A DNA stretch of 64,000 bases from Spirochaetaceae bacterium. GTDB taxonomy: Bacteria; Spirochaetota; Spirochaetia; DSM-27196; PWMO01. The DNA is taken from positions 34,496-98,495 of the forward strand of contig JBKHCS010000001.1 in the NCBI GenBank assembly GCA_046541715.1, read 5' to 3'. The translations under genes were made by a program, and so were the position numbers. Positions 17,527 through 30,867 of the stretch are shown piece after piece (the first letter of the stretch is position 1; the number at the start of each line of letters is the position of its first letter). Under the pieces are notes generated by a model, which was given only the letters and a program-made list of their open reading frames with translations, was not told the DNA's origin and did not search any database.

Positions 17527-20187
17527 TTAGCTGTTCTTCACGACCGACTGTGCCGCCGCGAGCCGGGCGATGGGCACCCGGAAGGGGGAGCAGGAAACGT
17601 AGTTGAGTCCTGCGCGGTAGCAGAAGTCGATTGAGGATGCCTCTCCACCGTGCTCTCCGCAGATACCGACTTTCAGATTGGGATTGGTCTTGCGACCCTT
17701 TTGCGTTCCCATTTCGACGAGCTGACCGACGCCGGTCTGATCGAGGGCGGCGAAGGGGTCCTGTTCCAGGATACCGTCATCGATGTACTGCGGAAGGAAG
17801 CTTCCGATATCGTCCCGGGAGAACCCGAAGGTCATCTGGGTAAGGTCGTTGGTCCCGAAGGAGAAGAACTCCGCCTGGGTGGCGATCTCGTCGGCGGTCA
17901 GGGCCGCACGGGGTACCTCGATCATGGTGCCGATGAGGTATTCGAGCTTGCTCCCCGCCTTCTCGAGGACATCCTTGCAGACTTTTTCGGCGTTGGCCCG
18001 AAGAATCTCGAGCTCCTTGATGGTACCGACCAGGGGAATCATGATTTCAGGCTGCACCTCGGCGCCACCCTTGGCGACCTCGACGGCCGCTTCCATGATG
18101 GCCTGAACCTGCATGTCGTAGACTTCCGGGTAGGTTATTCCCAACCGGCACCCGCGGTGACCGAGCATCGGGTTGAACTCGTGGAGAGAATCGATCTTGG
18201 CCTTGAGGGCGTCGACGCTTACGCCGGTAGAATTCGCAAGCTCCTTGATTTCCGCCTCGGTGTGTGGGACGAACTCGTGCAACGGCGGATCCAAAAGCCG
18301 TACGGTTACCGGGAAGCCGGCCATCGCCTTGAAAATTCCGACGAAGTCGGACTTCTGCAGCGGCAAGAGTTTCTCGAGGGCTTTTTCCCGGGCAGCCTTG
18401 TCCTCGGCAACGATCATCTGACGGAAAATCCGGATCCGGTCCTCTTCGAAGAACATGTGCTCGGTGCGGCACAGACCGATACCTTCGGCGCCGAACTCCC
18501 GGGCTCGCTTCGCGTCCTCCGGGGTGTCCGCGTTGGTCCGGATGCCGAAGCCCTTCATATCCACGTTCGGCCGCTGGGCCTTGTTCCGGACGTTGTCGGT
18601 CCATTTTAGGAACTTCTCGAGCTGGTCGGAGATTTGGGGCTCGATCAGGGTCAGCTGACCTTCGTAGACTTCGCCGGTGGTTCCGTCGATGGTGATGAAG
18701 TCACCTTCCTTGAAGGACTTGCCCTTTACGTTCATCTGCTTGTTCGCGATCCCTATGTCCTTGGCTCCGGCGACACAGGGGGTACCCATGCCCCGGGCAA
18801 CGACGGCCGCGTGGCTCGTCATTCCACCGGTGGAGGTCAGGATACCTTCCGCAGCGTGCATACCGCCGATGTCCTCCGGGGAGGTTTCCTTTCGGACGAG
18901 AACGACCTTCTTGCCGCTCTTGACCCACTCCTCGGCGTCTTCGGCGGTAAAGACGATCTGGCCGCAGGCGGCACCGGGAGAAGCGTTAAGCCCCTTGGTC
19001 AGCGGTTCCTTGTCCTTGGTGGTGGAAGGGTCGATCATCGGGTGGAATACCTGGTCGAGCTGAGCCGGGGTTACCCGGTTGACCGCTTCGTCCTCGGTAA
19101 GAAGACCCTCTTGCACCATTTCGACGGCGATGCGAATCGCGGCGACGCCGGTTCGTTTTCCGTTACGGGTCTGAAGAATAAAGAGCTTACCCTGTTGGAT
19201 GGTAAACTCCATGTCCTGCATGTCCTTGTAGTGCGCCTCGAGCTTGTCCTTGACTTCGACCAGCTGGTCGTAACTCGTCTGGTCCTTCTTCGGGAGGCTC
19301 TTGATATCCATCGGCGTTCGGATACCCGCGACGACGTCCTCGCCCTGAGCGTTCATCAGGAACTCGCCGTAGAAGTACTTCTCCCCGGTCGAGGGATCCC
19401 GGGAAAAACAGACGCCGGTTCCCGAGTCTTCGCCGAAGTTACCGAAGACCATCGATTGAACGTTGACGGCGGTGCCCTTGAAACCCCGGAGGTCGTTGAG
19501 CTTCCGGTAGCGAACTGCCCGGGGATTGTTCCACGAACCGAATACGGCGTCGATGGCGGCCCAGAGCTGGTCGATGGGATTCTGGGGAAAGTCCTCCCCG
19601 GTATGAGACTTGAAGACCTCTTTGTACTTCTGGACGACCCCCTTCAGGTCGGCGGCATCGAGGTCGGTGTCGAGCTCGACACCCTTCTTCTCTTTGATCG
19701 CGTCGAGAGCGTGCTCGAAGTTTTCGTGCTTAACGCCCTTTACGACGTTCCCAAACATGTTGATAAAGCGACGGTACGAGTCCCAGGCAAACCGCTCATT
19801 GCCCGATTTTTTCGCAAGGCCCTCAACCGCTTTATCGTTGAGTCCGAGATTGAGGACCGTGTCCATCATGCCCGGCATAGAGGCGGCGGCGCCGGACCGG
19901 ACGGAGACCAGAAGCGGGTCGTCGGCGTCGCCGAGCTTCTTACCCATCATCTTCTCGAGCCTATCGAGGTGTTCCGACACTTCCTTGTTCAGGGAGTCCG
20001 GATAGTCTCCGTCGTGATTGTTGTAGTATTCGCATACCTCGGTCGAGATGGTGAACCCCGGCGGGACAGGGACGCCAACATTGGTCATTTCCGCAAGGTT
20101 GGCACCCTTGCCGCCGAGAAGATCCTTCATCTTGGAGGACCCTTCGGCCTTTCCTTCGCCGAAGAAGTAAACGTATTTCGTTGCCAT
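17527..20187 (-). CDS. ppdK: Pyruvate, phosphate dikinase
   Basis: 886 aa with the phospho-His motif GGMTSHAAVVARGMG, the PEP-utilising C-terminal TIM barrel and GICGEHGG. Confidence 0.95.
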   Translation of the reverse strand: MATKYVYFFGEGKAEGSSKMKDLLGGKGANLAEMTNVGVPVPPGFTISTEVCEYYNNHDGDYPDSLNKEVSEHLDRLEKMMGKKLGDADDPLLVSVRSGAAASMPGMMDTVLNLGLNDKAVEGLAKKSGNERFAWDSYRRFINMFGNVVKGVKHENFEHALDAIKEKKGVELDTDLDAADLKGVVQKYKEVFKSHTGEDFPQNPIDQLWAAIDAVFGSWNNPRAVRYRKLNDLRGFKGTAVNVQSMVFGNFGEDSGTGVCFSRDPSTGEKYFYGEFLMNAQGEDVVAGIRTPMDIKSLPKKDQTSYDQLVEVKDKLEAHYKDMQDMEFTIQQGKLFILQTRNGKRTGVAAIRIAVEMVQEGLLTEDEAVNRVTPAQLDQVFHPMIDPSTTKDKEPLTKGLNASPGAACGQIVFTAEDAEEWVKSGKKVVLVRKETSPEDIGGMHAAEGILTSTGGMTSHAAVVARGMGTPCVAGAKDIGIANKQMNVKGKSFKEGDFITIDGTTGEVYEGQLTLIEPQISDQLEKFLKWTDNVRNKAQRPNVDMKGFGIRTNADTPEDAKRAREFGAEGIGLCRTEHMFFEEDRIRIFRQMIVAEDKAAREKALEKLLPLQKSDFVGIFKAMAGFPVTVRLLDPPLHEFVPHTEAEIKELANSTGVSVDALKAKIDSLHEFNPMLGHRGCRLGITYPEVYDMQVQAIMEAAVEVAKGGAEVQPEIMIPLVGTIKELEILRANAEKVCKDVLEKAGSKLEYLIGTMIEVPRAALTADEIATQAEFFSFGTNDLTQMTFGFSRDDIGSFLPQYIDDGILEQDPFAALDQTGVGQLVEMGTQKGRKTNPNLKVGICGEHGGEASSIDFCYRAGLNYVSCSPFRVPIARLAAAQSVVKNS

Positions 20188-20232
20188 AATTCTAATTACC
20201 CCCGATGCATAGTGCTTTAGATTATTTGGTGC

Positions 20233-20261
20233 AGGCTAAAGAAAAAGGGCCCCGGTGTCAA
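20233..20261 (-). promoter_or_regulatory. Possible ppdK promoter (TTGACA-N17-TAGCCT)
   Basis: The -35 TTGACA lies inside the loop of the upstream terminator hairpin. The -10 is weak. Confidence 0.3.
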
Positions 20262-20278
20262 CCTGACCTCCGGGACCC
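20238..20278 (-). terminator. Terminator of the sigma-factor gene
   Basis: Minus strand has a GGGUCCCGG...CCGGGGCCC stem (one G-U pair, 14-nt loop) followed by TTTTTCTTT. Confidence 0.55.
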
Positions 20279-20300
20279 TTGTGTCCTCAGTATAATGCTC

Positions 20301-21185
20301 TTAAGAAATGTAGCTTTCGAGAAGCTGCGCCCTCTTCGGATGCTGCAACCGTTTGATCGCCTTCTTCTCGATCTGACGAATTCGTTCCTTCGTCAGGCTG
20401 TACTTGTCGCCGATCTCCTTCAGGGAGAGGGGGCTCCGGCCGTTCAAACCGAAGCGGTACTGGACGATCTCCGCCTCTTTCGGAGTCAGCGTTCCGAGAA
20501 CCTCGTTGATGTCTTCCTTCAAGGAGTGCTCGATAACCTGCTCTTCCGGGGCTTGGTAGCCTTCGTCTTCCACAAAGTCACCAAGGAGAGAGGAGTCTTT
20601 CTCGGCGTATACCGGCGTCTCGAGGGAGATGAGTTCCCGGGAAATATTGATCAGGTCCGCGACGTGATCCTCGTCCATGTTCAGCGTCTTGGCGATCTGC
20701 TTCATCTCTGCGGTTTCGCCGTTGGAACCCTGGATCTGCTTCCGTACTTTTTCGATCTGCACGAGCTCGTTGGCCCGGTTGAGGGGAAGCCGGATCATCC
20801 TCGACTTCTCGCAGATCGCCTTCAGAATCGCCTGACGAATCCACCAGACGGCGTACGAGATAAAGTGAAATCCTTTGTCAACGTCGAAACGCTCGATGGC
20901 GTTCATCAGTCCGATATTCCCCTCGCTGATGAGGTCGGAAAGCGGCAGACCTTGATTTTGGTACTTCTTCGCGACGTTGACCACGAAGCGCAAGTTTGCC
21001 TGCACCAGCTTGTCTTTGGCCCACTTTTCGTTCCGGGCGGCCGCTCGGGCGTACTTATCCTCTTCTTCCCGGGTCAAAAGGGGTATCTTGTTGATCTCTT
21101 TGAGATATATCGAAAGGACATTCTCGTCGTCCTTGTTTCTCGGGGTGTATCCTTGGGTCTTGGTGCTGTTCTTTACCGCTGCCAT
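20301..21185 (-). CDS. Sigma-70-family alternative sigma factor, RpoS-like (no region 1.1)
   Basis: 294 aa. Region 2 is LRFVVNVAKKYQNQGLPLSDLISEGNIGLMNAIERFD...YAVWWIRQAI. Region 4.2 is SLKEIGDKYSLTKERIRQIEKKAIKRL. GAGGAGG SD. Confidence 0.85.
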   Translation of the reverse strand: MAAVKNSTKTQGYTPRNKDDENVLSIYLKEINKIPLLTREEEDKYARAAARNEKWAKDKLVQANLRFVVNVAKKYQNQGLPLSDLISEGNIGLMNAIERFDVDKGFHFISYAVWWIRQAILKAICEKSRMIRLPLNRANELVQIEKVRKQIQGSNGETAEMKQIAKTLNMDEDHVADLINISRELISLETPVYAEKDSSLLGDFVEDEGYQAPEEQVIEHSLKEDINEVLGTLTPKEAEIVQYRFGLNGRSPLSLKEIGDKYSLTKERIRQIEKKAIKRLQHPKRAQLLESYIS

Positions 21186-21218
21186 TCTTTCCTCCTCTCT
21201 CTATACAATCCCTTAAAA

Positions 21219-21233
21219 GCAAGGAGCGTGCCA
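21219..21233 (-). promoter_or_regulatory. Sigma-54 (-24/-12) promoter: TGGCACG-N4-TTGC
   Basis: Minus strand reads TTGGCACGCTCCTTGCT. The GC of the -12 element is 33 nt upstream of ATG 21185. Confidence 0.65.
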
Positions 21234-21325
21234 ATAGAACGGTACATACCGCTTGACATAACTACCTTTCTAACAATAACTTACAGGGGGATCAGAGGTT
21301 TCTGTTTTGCCGGGTCTTCTCGAAG

Positions 21326-21435
21326 TGGGTCAAATAGTCTCAAGATCGCGTCTTCTGAGAATAGATGGGTCAAATTGACCCCTAACTTAGTTTTGCAGCT
21401 TCTCATGGTGAAATCTTGACCCGGCAACGGTCAAT
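21326..21435. repeat. Array of five GGTCAA/TTGACC half-sites, including a 15-bp palindrome
   Basis: TGGGTCAAAT at 21326-21335 and 21366-21375, exactly 40 bp apart. Palindrome GGGTCAA-A-TTGACCC at 21367-21381. Inverted repeat TTGACC-N7-GGTCAA at 21416-21434. Confidence 0.7.
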
Positions 21436-21444
21436 CCTTATATT
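21416..21444 (+). promoter_or_regulatory. Sigma-70-type promoter of groES (TTGACC-N17-TATATT)
   Basis: Read directly. The -10 ends 52 nt upstream of ATG 21497, and AGGAGG SD is at 21486-21491. Confidence 0.5.
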
Positions 21445-21496
21445 TTCGTCACAAATCTACAACCACTAGCGCTTCAATTCCTAGTAGGAGGAAAAC

Positions 21497-21763
21497 ATGA
21501 AGGTCAAACCGCTTGGCGACCGCGTTCTGCTCAAGACCGAGAAAGAAGAGGAAAAGACCAAAGGTGGTCTCTTTATCCCCGAAACTGCCCAAGAGAAGAC
21601 CCAGTCGGGCATCGTAGAGGCAGTCGGCGACGACGAAGAGGTTATCAAGGTCAAGAAGGGTGACCACGTGATGTACGACAAGTACGCCGGCACCAGCATC
21701 AAGATCGACGACGCGGACTACCTGATCGTCAAAATGGACGACATCATCGCCATCGTAGAGTAG
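21497..21763 (+). CDS. groES: Co-chaperonin GroES
   Basis: 88 aa, MKVKPLGDRVLLK...GGLFIPETAQEK...GD.V.Y.KYAG. No groEL follows. Confidence 0.95.
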   Translation: MKVKPLGDRVLLKTEKEEEKTKGGLFIPETAQEKTQSGIVEAVGDDEEVIKVKKGDHVMYDKYAGTSIKIDDADYLIVKMDDIIAIVE

Positions 21764-21794
21764 TCGGCCACAGACTCCGGTTCGCAACGCGTAA

Positions 21795-21830
21795 GGGGCT
21801 GTCCCACCAGGTGGGGCGGCCCCTTTTTTT
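21795..21830 (+). terminator. Rho-independent terminator of groES (hairpin shared with convergent dinG end)
   Basis: GGGGCTGTCCCAC-CAG-GTGGGGCGGCCCC followed by TTTTTTT. Confidence 0.8.
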
Positions 21831-24276
21831 ATTCGGAGGTCTCCTCCAAGAACCGTTCAACCCGTTCGAAGACCTCCCCGGCTCCGGCGATAATGCGCTG
21901 GGTCTCCGGGAGGGACGCGAGAAAGAGCGAACCGTATTGCTTCTTGACGATCCGGGCGTCGGCAATCAGAACCACCCCCCGATCCCTCCGGTGCCGCATC
22001 AGGCGGCCGAAGCCTTGTCGCAAACGGGTAATCGCCTCCGGTACGCTAAAGTCCATAAACGGGTTCCCCCCGGTTCGTTCGATTGCCGCCATCCGCGCCA
22101 GGGTTACCGGATGCGTAGGCACCCGGAACGGGAGCCGGGTTACGACCACGAGCTTGAGGGTCTCCCCCGGAGCGTCAACTCCGGCCCAGAAGCTGTCGGT
22201 GGCAAAGAGCACGCTCGCCATATCCGCGGAAAATCGCCCGAGAAGGCGGCTCCGCTCGTCCTCCCCTTGGTACAGACAGCTGATGCCCCTTTCCCGAAGC
22301 GTCGGAGCAACCGCCCCGTAGGTCTCCATGAGAAGCTGATACGAGGTAAAGAGAATGAGAGCTCCGCCTCCGGACCTCTCGACACTCTCGAGAACCAACT
22401 TCGCGAGAAACGTTTCGTACCCCTCTTCCGTCGGCAGGGGACCATCGGTCGGGATTCCGAGGAGCACCCGCTCCCGGAAGGCGAAGGGAGAGGGATAGGT
22501 CGACTCGACGAGCCGGTCGGCTTCGAGGTGGTGGCTTCCGAGGCGCCGACGATAGAACTCGAAGCTCCCCTGAATGGTCAAGGTGGCGCTCAGGAAAAGG
22601 ACCGACGGGTACTGGTCGTAGACCGCCTCTTTCATGAGGTTGCCGATCTCCAAGGGGCTCACGGTAAACCGGGTGTACGCGTCTCCTTTTTTACGGCTCG
22701 AGAGCTCGAGCCAGCAGACAGAATCCGGCCGGGCAGCGGGATCCTGAAGAATACCGCAGAGCTCGGAGACCCGCCCAAGGCGCCGGTAGACCCCCCGGGC
22801 TTCGAGGAACAGGGGATCCTCGGTGGCCTCCTCCGGGAGGTTTGAAAGGTCCTGCTGCAGCGCGTCCAAAAGCTCTCCGAGGGCCAGTCGGAGAGCCTCG
22901 AGGCCCTCCCGGAGAGACGCCGGCGGCAGGCTGTCCGAATCCGGGCGAAGCCAGAGACTCGAGTCCTCGCGTAAGGACGCCGTCGCGGTCGCGTCGATCG
23001 CCGCCGCAGCCTCCTCCACACCGGGGATGAGCCCCCGAAGCCGCGAGAAAGCGTGCCCCTCGCCGTAGCCCTCTGCAAGCCCCGACAGAATCCCCAGCTC
23101 CCGCCCCCGCTTCCGGCGCACCAGGCGCCGCAACTGCTTCGCGATCGACAGTCGGGAAAAGGATTCGGAGAAGAAGGAGGTCGCGCTCGTCTCGACCTCG
23201 TGGGCCTCGTCGAAGATAAGCCGTTTAAAGGGCGGAAGAACCGCCGTGGCATCGAAGCCAACCGCCTGGAGCCGCAAGCTCAAGTCGGAAAAGAGCAAAT
23301 GATGATTGACGATCAGGATGTGCGCCTTCGCGGCTCGTCGCCGGGCTTGGACAACGAAGCAGTGGGGCTTCTGGGAGCGGCACTTCGCGGCGGAACAGCT
23401 ATCGGGATCCGAATTGACCCTCTCCCAAAGGCTGTCGGCGGGATAAAAGGGGGCGTCGCTTCGGCTACCTGTTTCGGTCACCTCGGCCCACTCACGCAAC
23501 GCCTCGAGGTCCGCGCTCTCCTCGTTGAAGAGCGACTGCTCCTTCAGCTCCTCCTCCAAGCGCGCCCGGCAGAGATAGTTGCCCCTTCCCTTGACGAGTA
23601 CTGCCGAAACGTCGCTACCTAAAAGCCGTTGTGCGATCGGGATGTCTTTTTCGACGAGCTGCTGCTGGAGGTTGATCGTCGCAGTCGACACGACGATCCG
23701 CTCGTTGTTCTGTTTGGCCCAGGCGAGAGCCGGAATAAGGTAGGCGAGGGACTTTCCCACACCGGTCCCCGCCTCGGCAAAAAGTACCCGGTCCTCTCCA
23801 AAGGCCTCCGCGACGGCCTCCAGGAGCAGCTGCTGACTCTCCCGTACTTCGAAGCTCGGCATGGCTCCGGCGAGGGGACCGTCGTCGTCGATCAACCGGA
23901 CGAGCTCGAAGGTGTCGAGGGGCTCGATCGCCTCCAGGAGGAGCGGCTCGGTCACGACGTAGACGCGGTCGACCTCGTTGTCGACGATGTACATACCGAC
24001 ACCGATCCGGGAGAGCTGAGAGGCAACCTCGAGGTCCGCGCCGCTCGGAGAGAGCGTTCCGCTCGGATGGTTGTGGATGATAACATCCCCCCGCTCCACT
24101 TCGTGAGCCGGAGCAAGAACGGTAACCGGGTTTCCTCGAGCGCGAATCCGGACCTCGGACACCATTCCCGTGTCGTCGACGGAGCAGACGAAAAGGACTT
24201 CGTTTCCACCGGCGTCGGCAATGGCTTCTTTGATGGTCGCTTGCGGCTCCGGATAGAGCCGCTCGTCGGCTTGCAT
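21829..24276 (-). CDS. dinG: DinG/XPD-family Fe-S helicase with N-terminal RadC-like JAB/JAMM domain
   Basis: 815 aa from ATG 24276. The N-terminal ~120 aa carry HNHPSGTLSPSGAD, which is H-x-H-x7-S-x2-D. The rest has Walker A AGTGVGKS, DEAH (FDEAHEVE) and a 4-Cys cluster (C...C-x4-C-x6-C). The ORF-track N-terminus (to 25518) is antisense to asd. Confidence 0.85.
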   Translation of the reverse strand: MQADERLYPEPQATIKEAIADAGGNEVLFVCSVDDTGMVSEVRIRARGNPVTVLAPAHEVERGDVIIHNHPSGTLSPSGADLEVASQLSRIGVGMYIVDNEVDRVYVVTEPLLLEAIEPLDTFELVRLIDDDGPLAGAMPSFEVRESQQLLLEAVAEAFGEDRVLFAEAGTGVGKSLAYLIPALAWAKQNNERIVVSTATINLQQQLVEKDIPIAQRLLGSDVSAVLVKGRGNYLCRARLEEELKEQSLFNEESADLEALREWAEVTETGSRSDAPFYPADSLWERVNSDPDSCSAAKCRSQKPHCFVVQARRRAAKAHILIVNHHLLFSDLSLRLQAVGFDATAVLPPFKRLIFDEAHEVETSATSFFSESFSRLSIAKQLRRLVRRKRGRELGILSGLAEGYGEGHAFSRLRGLIPGVEEAAAAIDATATASLREDSSLWLRPDSDSLPPASLREGLEALRLALGELLDALQQDLSNLPEEATEDPLFLEARGVYRRLGRVSELCGILQDPAARPDSVCWLELSSRKKGDAYTRFTVSPLEIGNLMKEAVYDQYPSVLFLSATLTIQGSFEFYRRRLGSHHLEADRLVESTYPSPFAFRERVLLGIPTDGPLPTEEGYETFLAKLVLESVERSGGGALILFTSYQLLMETYGAVAPTLRERGISCLYQGEDERSRLLGRFSADMASVLFATDSFWAGVDAPGETLKLVVVTRLPFRVPTHPVTLARMAAIERTGGNPFMDFSVPEAITRLRQGFGRLMRHRRDRGVVLIADARIVKKQYGSLFLASLPETQRIIAGAGEVFERVERFLEETSE

Positions 24277-24338
24277 GGGTGGTGCAATGATAGCCGCCCG
24301 AGACCCCCCGGGCAATCCTGACTCCGGTGGTTCCGACC

Positions 24339-24368
24339 TTGACACCCCTCCGTTTTGCTCAGTAGAGT
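24339..24368 (+). promoter_or_regulatory. Possible asd-lysC promoter (TTGACA-N18-TAGAGT)
   Basis: Read directly in the 108-bp divergent spacer. It predicts a ~10-nt leader. Confidence 0.4.
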
Positions 24369-24384
24369 TCCGGAACCTTACGTC

Positions 24385-25428
24385 ATGAGTAACAACAAGA
24401 TACCCGTAGCCATCCTCGGTGCCACCGGGACCGTGGGCCAGAAGTTCGTTCTCCTCCTCTCGGATCATCCGCTCTTCGAGATTACCGAGGTCGTCGCATC
24501 CTCTCGTTCCGCCGGAAAGACGTACGCCGAGGCGACGGCCTGGAAACAGGATGCTGCGATTCCTGCGGCCGTCGCGTCGATGCCGGTAAAGGGCACCGAG
24601 GAAACCCTCGCCGGCGGTATTCTCTTCTCCGGCCTCGACAGCAGCGTCGCCGGGCCCGCGGAGGAGCAGTACGCCGAGGCCGGTCACTTGGTTATCAGCA
24701 ACGCAAAGAACCACCGGATGGACCCCGACGTTCCGCTGACGATTCCGGAGATCAACCCGGACCACTTCGCCCTGGTCGACAAGCAGCGCTACGCCGGGGG
24801 CATCATCACCAATTCCAACTGCTCGACCATGTTCCTCGCGATGGCCCTTGCGCCCCTGATGCCCTTCGGCATCGAGGCAGTCCAGGTAACCACGATGCAA
24901 GCGATAAGCGGCGCCGGCTACCCCGGTGTGCCGTCGATGGACATTCTCGGAAACGTCGTCCCCTATATCGGGGGAGAGGAAGAGAAGCTCGAGGAAGAGG
25001 CCGCGAAGATTCTCGGAACCCTCTCGGGGGACCGGATCGAGCCGGCGCCCTTTCTGGTGAGCGCCCAATGCAACCGCGTCCCCGTCTTCGACGGTCATAC
25101 CGAAACGGTGAGCATCAAGTTCAAGAAGCGGGTGACTCCCGACGAGGTCCGCAGGGCGATGGAGACCTTTTCCGGTATGCCTCAGGAAAAGGGGCTTCCG
25201 AGCGCTCCGCCTCGGCCGATTATCGTTATGGACGCGCCGGACAGGCCCCAGCCGGCCCGGGACGTCTGGATCAGCAAGGGGATGGCGACAATCGTAGGAC
25301 GCATCCGAAAGTGTCCCGTTTTCGACGTCAAGTTCGTGGTCCTGGGTCACAACACCGTCCGGGGAGCCGCCGGGGCGGCTGTTCTGAACGCCGAGGCCTA
25401 CGTGGCTCTCGGCTACTACTCCCCATGA
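24385..25428 (+). CDS. asd: Aspartate-semialdehyde dehydrogenase
   Basis: AILGATGTVGQ Rossmann motif and active-site SNCSTM. Start set at ATG 24385 (MSNNKIPVAILG). Confidence 0.9.
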   Translation: MSNNKIPVAILGATGTVGQKFVLLLSDHPLFEITEVVASSRSAGKTYAEATAWKQDAAIPAAVASMPVKGTEETLAGGILFSGLDSSVAGPAEEQYAEAGHLVISNAKNHRMDPDVPLTIPEINPDHFALVDKQRYAGGIITNSNCSTMFLAMALAPLMPFGIEAVQVTTMQAISGAGYPGVPSMDILGNVVPYIGGEEEKLEEEAAKILGTLSGDRIEPAPFLVSAQCNRVPVFDGHTETVSIKFKKRVTPDEVRRAMETFSGMPQEKGLPSAPPRPIIVMDAPDRPQPARDVWISKGMATIVGRIRKCPVFDVKFVVLGHNTVRGAAGAAVLNAEAYVALGYYSP

Positions 25429-26762
25429 CCGTCTTAAAGTTCGGCGGCTCGTCGGTCGCCGACGCCGGATGGATTCGCCGGGTCGTCGATATCGTGACGC
25501 CCCGGATCGCCGAGGCACCGATCGTCGTCGCCTCGGCGATGGGCAAAACCACCGACAGATTGGTGGAAATCGCCTCAGAGGGCGCCCGGGGCCGCCTCCG
25601 GGAGGCGGAAGCGATCCTCGAAGGCGTCGCGGAGCATCACCGGAACGCCACCCGGGAGCTTTTCGGCGGGAGCCTTCTTGAAGAGGTCCTCGGTACCGTC
25701 GACGCCCTCCTCTCGGAGCTCAATTCCGTCATCCATGGTCTGGTCTTGGTAAGGGAGTGCACCCCTCGTAGCTTCGACGCGATTCTCTCCTTCGGAGAGC
25801 GTCTCTCGACGGTTATCCTTTCGGCAGCCTTCCGGAGCGGCGGCGTCGACGCGATTCTGCTCGACAGCCGACGCCTGATAGTGACGGACGACGAATTCTC
25901 CTCCGCTATGCCCGACTTTGAGGCAACCAACCGGACCATCCGGGAGCAGGTTCATCCCGCCCCGGGAGCCGTTCTGGTGCTCCAAGGCTTTATCGCCTCG
26001 ACCAAAGAGGGGGTAACCACCACCCTCGGCCGCGGAGGATCCGACTTTACGGCGACCATTGTCGGAGCGGCCCTCGGGGCCGACGCCGTCGAGATATGGA
26101 CCGACGTCAACGGCATCATGACCAGCGATCCCCGGGTCGTTCCCAGTGCCCAGACCCTCACCGAGATTAGCTACGCCGAGGCGGCGGAGTTGGCCTTCTT
26201 CGGAGCGAAGGTCGTCCACCCCTTTACGATCGAGCCGGCCATCGAGTTGGGCATCCCGGTCTGGGTCCGGAACACCGGGAACCCCGAGCACCCCGGGACG
26301 CGGATCTCGGAGAGCTCCGTCGAGAAGGGAGTCCGGGCCCTAGCGGCCAAGAAGGACGTAACCCTCGTAAGTGTCCAGTCCTACCGGATGCTGAACGCTC
26401 ACGGGTTTCTGGCAAGCATCTTTACCATCTTTGCCGAGGCGCGTATTTCGGTGGACTTGGTGGCAACCTCGGAAGTCTCGGTTTCGATGACCCTCGACCG
26501 AACCGAGGGGCTCGGTTCGGTGGTGAAGCGACTCGAAGACCTCGGCACCGTCGAAGTGGAAACCCGGCGAGGAATCGTCTGCCTCGTCGGAAAGGGACTC
26601 TGGCGGGATTCGGCGGTCGTTGCCCGGGTCTTCAATACCCTCGAGGATGTACCCTTGAGGATGATCTCCCTCGGCTCCTCGGACACGAACCTCTCCCTCG
26701 TCGTCGCCGAAGATGACGCCGACAGGGCGGTTCGGAAACTCCACGCGGCCTTCTTCGATTAA
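25425..26762 (+). CDS. lysC: Aspartate kinase (monofunctional, two ACT domains)
   Basis: MTVLKFGGSSV start with an ATGA overlap onto the asd stop. The ORF-track N-terminal extension lies inside asd. Confidence 0.9.
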   Translation: MTVLKFGGSSVADAGWIRRVVDIVTPRIAEAPIVVASAMGKTTDRLVEIASEGARGRLREAEAILEGVAEHHRNATRELFGGSLLEEVLGTVDALLSELNSVIHGLVLVRECTPRSFDAILSFGERLSTVILSAAFRSGGVDAILLDSRRLIVTDDEFSSAMPDFEATNRTIREQVHPAPGAVLVLQGFIASTKEGVTTTLGRGGSDFTATIVGAALGADAVEIWTDVNGIMTSDPRVVPSAQTLTEISYAEAAELAFFGAKVVHPFTIEPAIELGIPVWVRNTGNPEHPGTRISESSVEKGVRALAAKKDVTLVSVQSYRMLNAHGFLASIFTIFAEARISVDLVATSEVSVSMTLDRTEGLGSVVKRLEDLGTVEVETRRGIVCLVGKGLWRDSAVVARVFNTLEDVPLRMISLGSSDTNLSLVVAEDDADRAVRKLHAAFFD

Positions 26763-26783
26763 GAGCCTCTTCTAGGGTGCCGG

Positions 26784-27185
26784 ATGGATTTTTTCAATCG
26801 GATAGCACGGCTTATCGACGCCGCCCTGAACGACGACACCGTTTCTCCGGGTTCCGCCTCGGGAGCCGTTTCCGGGGATAGAGACTACCACGAAGCGTGG
26901 AAGGAGCTCGACGACTACCTAAAGGGAGCCGAGGCCCACTACCGGGGAGAGGAGCGTCCCGCCCCCGAAGCGGGCCTCCCCCCGGAGATCCTCCAAGCCT
27001 ACCGTGATCTCGAGGTATCTCCCTACGCCTCCTTGGGGGAGGTCCGGGAGGCGTACCGCCGATTGCAGATTCGGTATCATCCCGACCGGTTCGGTGCGAG
27101 TCCGGAGAAGCAGAAGCTCGCCACCGAGATCGCCACGCGGCTCAACGAATCCTACGCCCGAATCCGGAACTACCTCGGAGATTAA
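26784..27185 (+). CDS. J-domain (DnaJ-like) protein
   Basis: 133 aa with a C-terminal J-domain containing the HPD motif (YRRLQIRYHPDRF). Confidence 0.7.
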   Translation: MDFFNRIARLIDAALNDDTVSPGSASGAVSGDRDYHEAWKELDDYLKGAEAHYRGEERPAPEAGLPPEILQAYRDLEVSPYASLGEVREAYRRLQIRYHPDRFGASPEKQKLATEIATRLNESYARIRNYLGD

Positions 27186-28573
27186 CCGTCGGTCGACGCC
27201 TTCGGTGGCACCGCTTCCGAGAGATGGTAGTCTGCGATTTTGCGATGGAGAGTCTTACGCCCGATCCCGAGGGCTTCGGCGGTCTTGCTCTTGTTGCCGT
27301 TGTTGTAGTTCAAGGTAGAGCGGATGATCTCTTGCTCCGCTTCGGCGAGGGTGGAGCCCACCGGGACCCGGATGTAGTCCTGCTCGTTCTCGGTGTTGAT
27401 CGTCGGCGGGAGGTCGTCGACGGTGATTATGTTTCCTTTCGACAGCACGACCGCGCTCTCGATGCAGTTCCGAAGCTCCCGGACGTTTCCGGGCCAGGAA
27501 TACTTGTAGAGAGCCGCCCGGGCCTTAGGATCGATTCCCTCGACCGGCTTTTCATTCTCCTGGGCGAACTCCCGGATAAACGAAGAGACCAAAAGCGGAA
27601 TGTCTTCCTTCCGCTCCCGGAGAGGTGGAATGTGGATATTGACGACGTTGAGGCGGTAAAAGAGATCCTCCCGGAAGGTACCCTTCTCGATCTCGACCTT
27701 CAGCTCCTTATTGGTCGCCGAGATGATGCGAACATCGACCTCGAGGGTCTCCTCGCCCCCTACCCGCTCGAACCTCTTCTCCTGGAGCACCCGGAGAATC
27801 TTTATCTGTACGCTCTGGTTGATCTCCCCGATCTCGTCGAGAAAGATGGAGCCCATATGAGCCAACTCGAAGCGGCCCCGCTTGCGACCCACGGCCCCGG
27901 TAAAGGCGCCCTTTTCGTGGCCGAAAAGCTCGCTCTCGAGAAGCGATTCCGAGAGGGCCGCACAGTGAACCTTGATAAAGGGCTTTTCCCTCCGGTTGGA
28001 CAGATTATGGAGGGCGTCGGCAATCAGCTCCTTCCCGACTCCGCTCTCCCCCGTAATGAGCACCGAAGCCTTCGTCGGCGCAACCTGCTTGACCAGATCG
28101 AGAATGCGCTGCATCTCTGAGGACTTGCCGATGATGTTGGCGAACTGCCGCTGAGACTTCAGCTCCTCCTGCATCGCCCGGTGCTGCAGCACCAACTCCC
28201 TCGTCGAGAGCGCCCTCTTGACCAGAAGCGAGAGGCGGTCGAGATTTACCGGTTTCGTAAGGAAGTCGAAGGCTCCGTCTCTCATCGACTGAACCGCCGT
28301 CTCGATCGTGCCGTGACCCGTCAGGATGATAACGGGAATCGTCGGCCAGGAATCCACGACCCGCCGGAGGAGCTCCTCTCCCGAGAGCCGGGGCATCCGT
28401 AGATCCGCGATAATAAGGTCGACCTCCTCCTGGTGAATAATCTCGAGAGCCTCCTGCCCATCCTCCGCCAAAAGGGTGTTGTGACCGTCCATTTCCAAGG
28501 CCTTGCCGAGGCCTTGACGGATGTTCTTCTCGTCGTCGACTATCAGTACGTTAAACTTCACGTTCCTCACCAC
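27182..28573 (-). CDS. Sigma-54-dependent response regulator (NtrC/Rrp2-like bacterial enhancer-binding protein)
   Basis: REC domain (VLIVDDE...IIADLRMP), AAA+ domain with GESGVGKE and the GAFTGA motif, and a C-terminal Fis-type HTH. Confidence 0.9.
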   Translation of the reverse strand: MVRNVKFNVLIVDDEKNIRQGLGKALEMDGHNTLLAEDGQEALEIIHQEEVDLIIADLRMPRLSGEELLRRVVDSWPTIPVIILTGHGTIETAVQSMRDGAFDFLTKPVNLDRLSLLVKRALSTRELVLQHRAMQEELKSQRQFANIIGKSSEMQRILDLVKQVAPTKASVLITGESGVGKELIADALHNLSNRREKPFIKVHCAALSESLLESELFGHEKGAFTGAVGRKRGRFELAHMGSIFLDEIGEINQSVQIKILRVLQEKRFERVGGEETLEVDVRIISATNKELKVEIEKGTFREDLFYRLNVVNIHIPPLRERKEDIPLLVSSFIREFAQENEKPVEGIDPKARAALYKYSWPGNVRELRNCIESAVVLSKGNIITVDDLPPTINTENEQDYIRVPVGSTLAEAEQEIIRSTLNYNNGNKSKTAEALGIGRKTLHRKIADYHLSEAVPPKASTDG

Positions 28574-29726
28574 TCCAGCTCAAGAGATGCTGTTCCCGTT
28601 GAGGAATCGGGAACAAAATGGAAACGGTCGTCCCCTCGCCGGGGTGTGATACGACCGAGATCTCTCCCTTGTGTTCCTTGACCACCTTGTACACAAGCGT
28701 TAGGCCGATCCCGGAACCGAAGTCCTTCGTCGTAAAGTAGGGCTCGAAAATCTTGCCGAGGTTCTCTTCCGGAATACCCTCTCCGGTATCGCTTATTCGT
28801 AAGAGGACCTCGTCGCCCCGGCGTTCGGTGGAAAAGGTCAGCCTACCGCCGTCGGGCATCGCGGCGAGGGAGTTCTTAACCAGGTTCATCAACGCTTGCT
28901 TTACGAACTTCTGATCGAGATCCAGGTCCGGGAGATCCTCGGCCAAATACGCCTCTGTCTCTACCCCATGCTCCTTGACCTCGTACCGGAGAAACTCCAT
29001 CAGGTCCCGGATAATCTGGTTGATGTCGCTCCGTTCCGGCTGCACGTCGACCGGTCGCACGGCAAAGAGAAAATCGACGACGATCCGGTTGAGACGGTCG
29101 ACCTCCTCGTTTACCACGTCGACGAAGCCAAGGACGCGCTCCCGGTCCATCTGTTCCTCGGCAAGCGCTTTCTGAATCAGTTGGATGTGGATGCCGATGG
29201 AACCGAGGGGATTCTTTATTTCGTGGGCGACTCCCGCGGCGAGGGTCGTAAGGGAGGCCAGGCTTTCGGCCCGTCGAAGGCGGGCTTCCCGGCTCCGCTT
29301 GTCGGTAATATCAACCGCATGAACGATGTTTCCCTGGATGTGCCCCTCCCGTACCAAGGGCTCGATACAGACCGACAGAATCTTCATCGAGCCGGATTCC
29401 CCGAGGACGAACTCTTTGTCGGCCACGGCATACTGCCTCTCGAGGGCGTCCTGCACGAACGCGGAGAGATCCGGGTCTCCGATAGCTTCCCACACGAGGC
29501 GCTCGTGGGGATCGTGATGCCCGTTGACGGTCAACAACCGCTCGGCTGCCTTGTTTGCCAGGGTTATCCGGTTGGCGTCGTCGGCGACGACCACCGCGTC
29601 GCTCATGGAGTCAAGAACGACGAGCATCCGCTCGTTCTCCGAAGCCAGGTCTGAGAGGAGCAGCCGCAGTTGCGAAGGATCGAGCTTATCGAATTTTTTT
29701 AGCGCACGCTCAAGAAACTTCCTCAT
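28551..29726 (-). CDS. Cytoplasmic PAS-domain sensor histidine kinase (NtrB/Hk2-like)
   Basis: No TM segments. PAS region, H-box VAHEIKNPLGS, and G-boxes DTGEGIP/GSGIGL. It overlaps the response-regulator start. Confidence 0.85.
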   Translation of the reverse strand: MRKFLERALKKFDKLDPSQLRLLLSDLASENERMLVVLDSMSDAVVVADDANRITLANKAAERLLTVNGHHDPHERLVWEAIGDPDLSAFVQDALERQYAVADKEFVLGESGSMKILSVCIEPLVREGHIQGNIVHAVDITDKRSREARLRRAESLASLTTLAAGVAHEIKNPLGSIGIHIQLIQKALAEEQMDRERVLGFVDVVNEEVDRLNRIVVDFLFAVRPVDVQPERSDINQIIRDLMEFLRYEVKEHGVETEAYLAEDLPDLDLDQKFVKQALMNLVKNSLAAMPDGGRLTFSTERRGDEVLLRISDTGEGIPEENLGKIFEPYFTTKDFGSGIGLTLVYKVVKEHKGEISVVSHPGEGTTVSILFPIPQREQHLLSWSGEEREV

Positions 29727-30867
29727 AGAGTTTGCTCAGCTGCCGGCGAAGCGGTGGGAAGAGCTGCTGCTTCGGAATATTAAGCACCGTGGCCCGGCGT
29801 CGGGTCGTTTCCAGAAGTTCGAGCATTGCGGAAAAGGTCTCGGCGTTATGTTGATCCGCTCCTTCGTGAAAGGCTGCCCTCAGCGAATTCGTCAGCCGCT
29901 CGAAGAGCAGCTCCAAGGGAATACCCTCTTTCTCCGTCTCCGCCGTGGTAAGAAGCTCGTTGATGCCCTCCAATCCCGGCGGGACACTCCGGTCCGACGT
30001 GGTTAGAAGGTACTCACGGACGCTATCCCGTTCAAGCTCCTCGATGTGGAAGACTCGGCGGAGTACTTCCTGCTCCTCCTCTTTCCGGCGGAGGGGGAAC
30101 CGGTAGATTCGAAGCCGCGAAAGAAGGGTCGGAAGGAGAGTTTTCGGTCTTCTGGTGGTCAGTATCAGCGTGAGCCCCGAAGGCGGCTCTTCGAGGAGCT
30201 TCAGGAGAGCGTTCGCCCCGGAGTCGGTCAGGTTTTCCGCACGCTCGATAATCGCGACCTTCCGGGCCCCGAGTCCCGTTAGGTGGCCCCAGGAAGTGAG
30301 GCTCCGAATCTGTTCGATAGATATCTGAGTAAGGGGGGCCTTCTTCTCTATTGCCGCGGCCGTCTCGATCAGCGACGAAAGCTGCTTCTCGAGCTTCGCC
30401 TCCGGGAGCAGCTCTCCTTCGGGGTCTAAGTCGAGAAGCTCTTCCTCCATCTTCGCTAAAAGCCCCTGGACCGCCTTCCGCTTCGGCGCCGCGTTGTCCC
30501 ATAGGGCGTCGTCAAACCGCCTGAGCAGCTTTCGCAAAGCCCTGACAAAGAGGAAGGCCGCTCCCCGGCGGCGGGTCCGTTTAAGGGCGTCGGCTGCGGC
30601 GACGATCTCCGGCGCGAACTCCTTTGGTCCCAAGAGCAGGGTATCGGGATGGATCAGGTGCCGGTGGAGCGTGCAGGATCGGCAGGTGCACCGCCAACGA
30701 GCCGTGCCTTCGAGGCACGTCAGCCCCCGGGCGGTCTCGAGGGCCACGGTTCCCTTGCCGCCGAGGGGGACGCCGGCAAAGAGGACGCTCGGCGGGAGGG
30801 TCGATTCTTCGAGGTCTTGTGTGAGGCGGCCGGTTACCCTCCGGTGACCGATGACGTTTTCGTACAT
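29710..30867 (-). CDS. holB: DNA polymerase III delta-prime-like AAA+ protein
   Basis: N-terminal clamp-loader pattern (VIGHRRV..., LFAGVPLGGKGT), a Cys-rich Zn module (CTCRSC) and SRL-type motif (TLLSRLR). Confidence 0.65.
   Translation of the reverse strand: MYENVIGHRRVTGRLTQDLEESTLPPSVLFAGVPLGGKGTVALETARGLTCLEGTARWRCTCRSCTLHRHLIHPDTLLLGPKEFAPEIVAAADALKRTRRRGAAFLFVRALRKLLRRFDDALWDNAAPKRKAVQGLLAKMEEELLDLDPEGELLPEAKLEKQLSSLIETAAAIEKKAPLTQISIEQIRSLTSWGHLTGLGARKVAIIERAENLTDSGANALLKLLEEPPSGLTLILTTRRPKTLLPTLLSRLRIYRFPLRRKEEEQEVLRRVFHIEELERDSVREYLLTTSDRSVPPGLEGINELLTTAETEKEGIPLELLFERLTNSLRAAFHEGADQHNAETFSAMLELLETTRRRATVLNIPKQQLFPPLRRQLSKLYEEVS

Follow-up and report, generated by a model that had tools for sequence, protein, structure and literature searches.

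A putative sigma-54 enhancer between an alternative sigma factor gene and groES in a spirochaete

A 64-kb stretch of contig JBKHCS010000001.1 (hereafter the window), from a free-living member of the Spirochaetaceae known solely from a metagenome assembly, contains a 311-bp spacer between the gene of an alternative sigma factor and the divergent groES gene. Five copies of the hexamer GGTCAA/TTGACC are crowded into 110 bp of this spacer (21326-21435). Which of the two genes do these copies serve, and do they form one element or several? In a preliminary description of the locus they had been taken as one phased array of equivalent half-sites, and two functions had been considered, an enhancer (upstream activating sequence, UAS) for a sigma-54 promoter and an operator for groES. 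The analysis reported here does not uphold a single array, as it merges things of different kinds. Judged by its conservation, the cluster is a composite of an enhancer core, a promoter hexamer and one hexamer that is not conserved. With a probability of about 0.7, two dyads in the cluster constitute a putative sigma-54 enhancer of the alternative sigma gene, from which the -35 hexamer of groES and the fifth hexamer would be separate.

The hexamer cluster and its two dyads

It was confirmed that the cluster is real and non-random. On recounting, five hexamers were found inside the 110 bp, where 0.074 are expected (Poisson P = 1.7e-8, or about 1e-5 when corrected for 582 windows). The maximum reached in 100 first-order Markov windows was three hexamers per cluster, and none of 5000 simulations with the composition of the spacer gave five. 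The sequence details given earlier for the locus were also recovered. TGGGTCAAAT is present at 21326-21335 and again at 21366-21375, exactly 40 bp apart, GGGTCAA-A-TTGACCC makes a perfect 7+1+7 palindrome at 21367-21381, and TTGACC-N7-GGTCAA is a perfect inverted repeat at 21416-21434 that overlaps the groES promoter. The spacer is relatively AT-rich, with a GC fraction of about 0.44 as compared to 0.52-0.65 in its flanks.

The recurring unit, as read from the aligned loci, is the 17-bp dyad TGGGTCA-N3-TGACCCA and not the hexamer. The hexamers at 21328, 21368 and 21375 lie inside two such dyads and are thus off-register fragments of the half-site TGACCCA/TGGGTCA. The features on the side of the sigma gene are the following.

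21366-21382, minus strand: putative distal enhancer dyad, GGGGTCA-ATT-TGACCCA on the sigma-gene strand, centre 21374, one mismatch to TGGGTCANNNTGACCCA; it contains the hexamers at 21368 and 21375 and the palindrome at 21367-21381.
21326-21342, minus strand: putative proximal enhancer dyad, TGAGACT-ATT-TGACCCA on the sigma-gene strand, centre 21334, three mismatches; it contains the hexamer at 21328.
21259-21283, no strand assigned: palindromic A/T element of 25 bp, TAAnTnnTT-N7-AAnnAnTTA, between the dyads and the promoter, centre at about -64.
21218-21234, minus strand: predicted sigma-54 (-24/-12) promoter TTGGCACGCTCCTTGCT of the sigma gene, with the start placed at about 21207.
20301-21185, minus strand: sigma-70-family factor of 294 aa with regions 1.2, 2, 3 and 4 (Pfam and NCBIfam).

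A scan of one genome per species gave 80 loci encoding the same sigma factor, whose homologues are 71-99% identical throughout the Spirochaetales; the taxa sampled were Spirochaetaceae, Treponema, Breznakiellaceae, Salinispira, Alkalispirochaeta, Marispirochaeta and Sediminispirochaeta. In an alignment of 72 non-identical upstream regions (alignment A1) the mean column identity is 36%, yet four islands are conserved, namely the sigma-54 promoter, the palindromic A/T element, the proximal dyad and the distal dyad. Dyads were scanned for with leave-one-out matrices over each whole locus of 4-8 kb on both strands, the background of hits of at least 15 bits being 1.4e-5 per position. The distal dyad of the window is the top hit in 8 kb (18.5 bits) and the proximal dyad the second best (17.3 bits). 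It was found that the two best hits of a locus lie exactly 40 bp apart, upstream of the sigma-54 promoter, in 62 of the 72 loci, and a site homologous to the distal dyad is kept in 69 of them. The alignment consensus is TGKGTCA-WWW-TGACnCA for the proximal dyad and TGGnnnA-TTn-TGAYnCA for the distal one. A spacing of 40 bp between centres is about four helical turns, which would put both dyads on the same face of the helix. The spacing is retained even in L055, L058, L066 and L074, where the dyads are further from the promoter. Among the window and its three closest relatives (L001-L003), the proximal dyad is invariant and the adjacent DNA is scrambled. Phylogenetic footprinting of the spacer, a check that the preliminary description had proposed, thus leaves the dyads and the promoter standing in surroundings that are otherwise unalignable.

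The sigma-54 promoter itself is well defined. TGGCACGCTCCTTGCT (21218-21233, minus strand) is a perfect sigma-54 promoter sequence, and it provides the single exact match to TGGCAY-N5-TTGCW in 64 kb; no second sigma-54 promoter was found in the window. The consensus across loci is TTGGCAYG-N4-TTGCW, in which the GG, A and TTGC positions are invariant (72/72). In most loci the match is found 36-50 bp ahead of the start codon of the sigma gene, and in the window it starts 47 bp upstream of that codon. When the transcription start is placed 12 nt downstream of the -12 GC, the dyad centres fall at about -127 (proximal) and -167 (distal), close to the values of about -120 and -165 given before. Across loci the usual distances of the two dyads upstream of the -24 element are about 100 and 140 bp, and in the leave-one-out scan the proximal centre is mostly found between -96 and -107, counted from the -24 GG. 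Symmetric sites of conserved position, about 80-200 bp from the promoter, are looked for in an enhancer, and the two dyads agree with this. The earlier suggestion that these sites are the UAS of the sigma-54 promoter is strongly supported by the footprinting, which finds the 40-bp pair upstream of a conserved -24/-12 element.

The gene arrangement bears on the same point. In all but a few of the 80 loci a divergent groES accompanies the sigma gene, either directly adjacent across a spacer of 280-510 bp or with one extra gene in a spacer of about 1 kb. In the lineages with the 1-kb spacer the dyads remain beside the sigma gene, and the distal dyad even extends over the stop codon of the extra gene. 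As the dyads are not parted from the sigma gene by this insertion, they are assigned to the sigma-54 promoter rather than to groES.

The palindromic A/T element is the remaining island. Its columns carry 1.2-1.9 bits in the 72 loci, and the element has its sole match in the window at this place (0.01 expected). An exact match is present in 12 loci, one in each; where the position of the sigma gene was recorded, the match is 60-150 bp upstream of it. The element may be bound by a dimer that bends DNA or acts as a co-regulator, possibly a BosR-like one. The symmetry of the element suggests a homodimer, for which a member of the HU/IHF family such as Hbb of Borrelia or some other regulator that acts as a dimer would qualify; no HU/IHF gene motif was found in the 64-kb window. 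As for the gene downstream, the best solved relatives of the sigma factor are the C-terminal parts of SigA/RpoD and RpoS, and it is thus assigned as a group-2-like alternative sigma factor.

It could be argued that the dyads are part of one phased array after all, with a spacing of 40-41 bp, along which the same activator oligomer would also reach a weak third site (TGGTGAA-ATCT-TGACCCG, near 21415) that overlaps the groES -35; the sigma gene would then be switched on and groES damped or modulated. The scan does score a site at 8.0 bits whose centre, 21415, is 41 bp past that of the distal dyad, and L002 and L003 give similar hits; TGACCCG in the groES -35 region agrees with the half-site at 6 of 7 positions. 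A genuine third dyad is also present upstream in a few lineages, at +40 bp in L007 and L055 and at +50 bp in L060. We nevertheless consider this arrangement unlikely, as the score of the hit is low and a centre of 4 bp instead of 3 bp is required. Moreover, in most lineages groES lies about 1 kb from the dyads and the same TTGACC -35 is kept, so that this hexamer is explained by promoter function alone.

Two further observations were made around the dyads. The palindrome at 21367-21381 was flagged by a scan as an intrinsic terminator and was rejected as such, the stem being of 6 bp, the tail ATCTATTCTC having no T run and no gene ending there. The dyads are also flanked by a 10-bp perfect inverted repeat, TTGCCGGGTC (21307-21316) and GACCCGGCAA (21418-21427), the right copy of which reaches into the groES -35. 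This repeat is probably incidental, since it is not conserved even in L001.

groES, its promoter and the inverted repeat

The features on the other side of the spacer are these.

21497-21763, plus strand: groES, 88 aa (NCBIfam GroES), an orphan gene divergent from the sigma gene.
21416-21444, plus strand: predicted groES promoter TTGACC-N17-TATATT, 10 of 12 consensus positions in a promoter scan; the hexamer at 21416 is its -35.
21429-21434, plus strand: GGTCAA right arm of the inverted repeat, inside the -35/-10 spacer of groES and lineage-specific.

In agreement with the preliminary description, the promoter scan places the left arm of the inverted repeat on the groES -35 and its right arm in the promoter spacer. 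TTGAC[CG]-N17/18-TATATT is found at groES in 76 of 77 related loci. By this conservation the groES promoter is an independent and strongly conserved promoter of the sigma-70 type. The gene has no groEL downstream; the next gene is a convergent one for a DinG-like helicase.

The inverted repeat TTGACC-N7-GGTCAA had also been proposed as an operator, at which a non-HrcA heat-shock repressor would occlude the groES -35/-10. It is a perfect repeat that overlaps the promoter, and its 7-N7-7 geometry recalls the HspR operator, with which it shares 9 of 14 consensus positions (compared by eye). It was also correctly stated that CIRCE is absent, as TTAGCACTC-N9-GAGTGCTAA has no match with up to 3 mismatches in the 64 kb. 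In addition, the window and L001-L003 keep both arms while 3 of the 7 intervening bases vary. However, the left arm is accounted for by the -35 box that is kept in 76 of the 77 loci. Among 84 loci TTGACC-N7-GGTCAA is limited to L001-L003, whose sigma proteins are 96-99% identical to that of the window. The right arm is missing from the 73 other loci scored, where the -35/-10 spacers share no sequence and usually hold no partner arm, the best match to GGTCAA reaching 3-4 of 6 positions in most cases. No match to the HspR operator CTTGAGT-N7-ACTCAAG was found at groES within 3 mismatches. The CtsR-type repeat RGTCAAA-NAN-RGTCAAA is at chance level, with only a 3-mismatch match at 21328-21344 (3 found as compared to 2.5 expected); a CtsR operator is also unlike the dyads, since their family-wide consensus is an inverted dyad and not a direct repeat. 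No candidate repressor gene was identified. Thus the idea of a groES operator, and with it of a potentially new heat-shock control element, is not supported, and such a repressor site appears doubtful. The sequences leave room for a lineage-specific role of the inverted repeat, for which four close relatives are weak evidence of little statistical power.

A still less probable explanation is that the dyads bind a regulator unrelated to sigma-54, a classical repressor or activator of groES or of both divergent genes. Measured from the inferred groES start (about 21451), the dyad centres are at about -77 and -117, which would be workable for class I activators. Against this, the position of the dyads is fixed relative to the sigma-54 promoter while their distance to groES varies from about 80 to about 900 bp, and a -24/-12 element preceded at some 100 and 140 bp by tandem 17-bp 7-3-7 dyads is the canonical layout of an enhancer. 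Finally, clustering of the hexamers by chance or through the composition of an AT-rich spacer, towards which only a certain excess of the hexamer over the whole window would point (43 copies on both strands as compared to 27.5 +/- 4.9 in shuffles), is effectively refuted by the Poisson and simulation results and by the dyad spacing across loci, three of the five hexamers lying inside sites that are kept across at least 60 genomes.

Some observations concern the groES transcript. About 50 bases immediately upstream of the groES ATG (21447-21496), which make up almost all of the predicted 5' leader, show 100% identity between the window and L001-L003, while the rest of the spacer diverges. The leader was considered as an RNA thermometer and rejected, as its predicted fold is no better than that of shuffled sequences (z = -0.38). 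No Rfam family reached its gathering score in 20000-23000, and the weak sub-threshold hits there, taken to be due to chance, lie outside the spacer. Between groES and the convergent helicase gene there is a strong terminator-like hairpin at 21793-21825, with 15 pairs, of which 10 are G-C, and a TTTTT tail, which is probably the groES terminator.

The candidate activator and the proposed mechanism

An enhancer of the proposed kind would need an activator, and the window encodes one candidate together with a kinase.

27182-28573, minus strand: candidate enhancer-binding protein with Response_reg, Sigma54_activat (GAFTGA), AAA_lid_14 and a C-terminal HTH_8 (Pfam and NCBIfam).
28551-29726, minus strand: PAS-HisKA-HATPase sensor kinase, NCBIfam AtoS/ZraS-like, directly upstream of the activator gene and overlapping it (activator start at 28573).

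The 27182-28573 protein is the sole GAFTGA activator in the 64-kb window, and among solved structures it is closest to NtrC4 and NtrC1 of Aquifex. Of four other genomes examined, three (L081, L082 and L084) encode orthologues of 69-82% identity at 6-9 kb from the sigma gene, and the pairing with the kinase is found in L081 and L082 as well. The stretch LGIGRKTLHRK is unchanged in all four proteins. Such linkage is modest evidence, since the gene order of the whole neighbourhood is conserved and the linkage may reflect that and not function. On domain content and position it is plausible that this protein is the activator of the dyads.

The mechanism could then run as follows. Dimers of an NtrC-family response regulator, most likely the 27182-28573 protein with its kinase 28551-29726, would bind the two dyads. 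On phosphorylation the activator would oligomerise, and a DNA loop, probably aided by a protein at the A/T element 21259-21283, would bring it to the sigma-54 holoenzyme, where ATP hydrolysis would open the sigma-54 promoter. The output would be an enhancer-dependent cascade from sigma-54 to the alternative sigma factor.

Several points weigh against this account. No RpoN box was found in the 64-kb window, so that it is the promoter and the activator that point to sigma-54 being present. The loci are homologous, and recovery of the dyads by the matrices is therefore footprinting and not independent discovery. The proximal dyad of the window is degenerate, with all three of its mismatches in the left half. 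The activator gene is 6 kb away, with housekeeping genes of conserved order in between, and L083 has the dyads with no activator within 10 kb. In addition, the right arm CGGTCAAT of the groES inverted repeat is invariant in the four-member clade of the window and L001-L003, where the neighbouring bases of the spacer vary. A further copy of the dyad, which could have indicated a regulon or autoregulation of the kinase-activator pair, was looked for and not found elsewhere in the 64-kb window.

The surrounding genes deserve mention in their own right. Over about 13 kb (17527-30867) the gene order is kept between the window and L081, L082 and L084, and comprises the kinase, the activator, a small J-domain protein, aspartokinase, the DinG-like helicase, groES, the sigma gene and pyruvate phosphate dikinase; relatives have genes for a family-4 glycosyltransferase and an aspartate-semialdehyde dehydrogenase in addition. 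The open reading frames 21829-25518 (1229 aa) and 25068-26762 (564 aa) overlap; as their homologues are of about 800 and 445 aa, the true starts are probably further downstream. Many relatives carry between groES and the sigma gene a gene for 226-270 aa without a Pfam hit (L083 9135-9815; L084 9017-9829; also most loci with a spacer of about 1 kb), which the lineage of the window does not have. The translated protein of L083 ends in a SEC-C-type metal-binding motif (CHCGSG...CCGR), and in this locus the distal dyad overlaps the last codons of the gene and its TGA stop.

Comparison with known systems

Mechanistically, what is proposed here is an ordinary sigma-54 enhancer. The binding site of NtrC has the consensus TGCACCA-N3-TGGTGCA, in a 7-3-7 layout, and in glnAp2 the centre-to-centre spacing of the sites is about 32 bp. 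The present locus resembles UAS of the NtrC/DctD/ZraR type, such as that of glnAp2, in having tandem 17-bp 7-3-7 dyads 100-170 bp upstream of a -24 GG/-12 GC promoter, and resembles NtrC systems in having an activator with receiver, AAA+ (GAFTGA) and Fis-type helix-turn-helix (HTH) domains that is paired with a sensor kinase. Enhancers typically lie 100-150 bp upstream of sigma-54 promoters (PMC3037356). The half-site is different, TGACCCA here as compared to TGGTGCA in the NtrC enhancer. Unlike in glnAp2, the centre spacing is a strictly conserved 40 bp and the target is a sigma factor gene and not a metabolic operon; the enhancer here is also one read from sequence.

The A/T element recalls the IHF-assisted sigma-54 promoters nifH, Pu and glnHp2, as it is A/T-rich and lies midway between enhancer and promoter. 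The IHF consensus is WATCAANNNNTTR, with the core CAA-N4-TTR, and each half of the element (AA-N4-TTA) resembles this core. The element differs in being a symmetric 25-bp palindrome, and the likeness to IHF is purely inferential. The groES repeat in turn is like the HspR/HAIR, HrcA/CIRCE and CtsR systems in that an inverted repeat overlaps a chaperone promoter, with a 7-N7-7 form as in HspR and GGTCAAA like a CtsR half-site. It is unlike those operators in not being conserved outside the closest relatives.

As a circuit, the locus is matched by that of another spirochaete, Borrelia burgdorferi, in which the Rrp2-RpoN-RpoS pathway is the master switch for transmission to mammals. As in the Hk2-Rrp2-RpoN-RpoS system, a group-2-like sigma gene stands here directly behind a -24/-12 promoter, and the candidate activator is a response regulator with an HTH whose kinase gene is directly upstream. 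In Borrelia, rpoS has a -24/-12 promoter (PMC3037356, PMC1976401), hk2 lies immediately upstream of rrp2 (PMC1976401) and Rrp2 is the sole activator (PMC12655853), which may be set beside the one activator and one sigma-54 promoter in the 64 kb here. Rrp2 acts independently of an enhancer, with no binding detected within 238 bp upstream of rpoS (PMC1976401), and BosR is required as a second factor for rpoS activation (PMC3037356, PMC1976401). The present locus differs in its conserved two-dyad enhancer and palindromic A/T element; the conserved enhancer makes it cascade-like, but not the enhancer-independent variant. In the literature searched, no sigma-54-dependent sigma gene or its enhancer was described outside Borrelia, in Treponema or in free-living spirochaetes. 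In Treponema pallidum the locus tag of the 35-kDa sigma factor TP1012 adjoins that of groES, TP1013 (PMC5015957), which fits the conserved pairing of the sigma gene and groES.

Our data suggests that a sigma cascade of the Borrelia type is widespread in the Spirochaetales in an enhancer-dependent form. A wider reading can be put forward only tentatively, and we think it rather less likely to hold than to fail. The cascade from sigma-54 to a group-2 sigma factor, described only in Borrelia, could be ancient in the Spirochaetales, its ancestral form being enhancer-dependent, with a dedicated activator, two dyads four turns apart and a palindrome for bending or a co-activator. The enhancer-independent action of Rrp2 and the need for BosR in Borrelia would then be derived. 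In the lineage of the window the enhancer would have moved against groES, where the third weak site and the GGTCAA arm could couple the co-chaperonin to activator occupancy. Such a history would speak to two puzzles of the Borrelia system, that Rrp2 has a helix-turn-helix and yet no binding site for it has been found, and that BosR is needed. If the cascades are homologous, free-living and host-associated Spirochaetales retain a sharply defined enhancer with a 17-bp dyad, 40-bp phasing and an extra palindrome. The palindromic element would be the place where BosR or IHF-like factors act, Borrelia and Treponema could be searched for the dyad motif, and these loci would offer a tractable system for how the cascade is triggered. 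They would also mark an evolutionary route from the enhancer-dependent activation proposed here to the enhancer-independent activation by Rrp2 in Borrelia.

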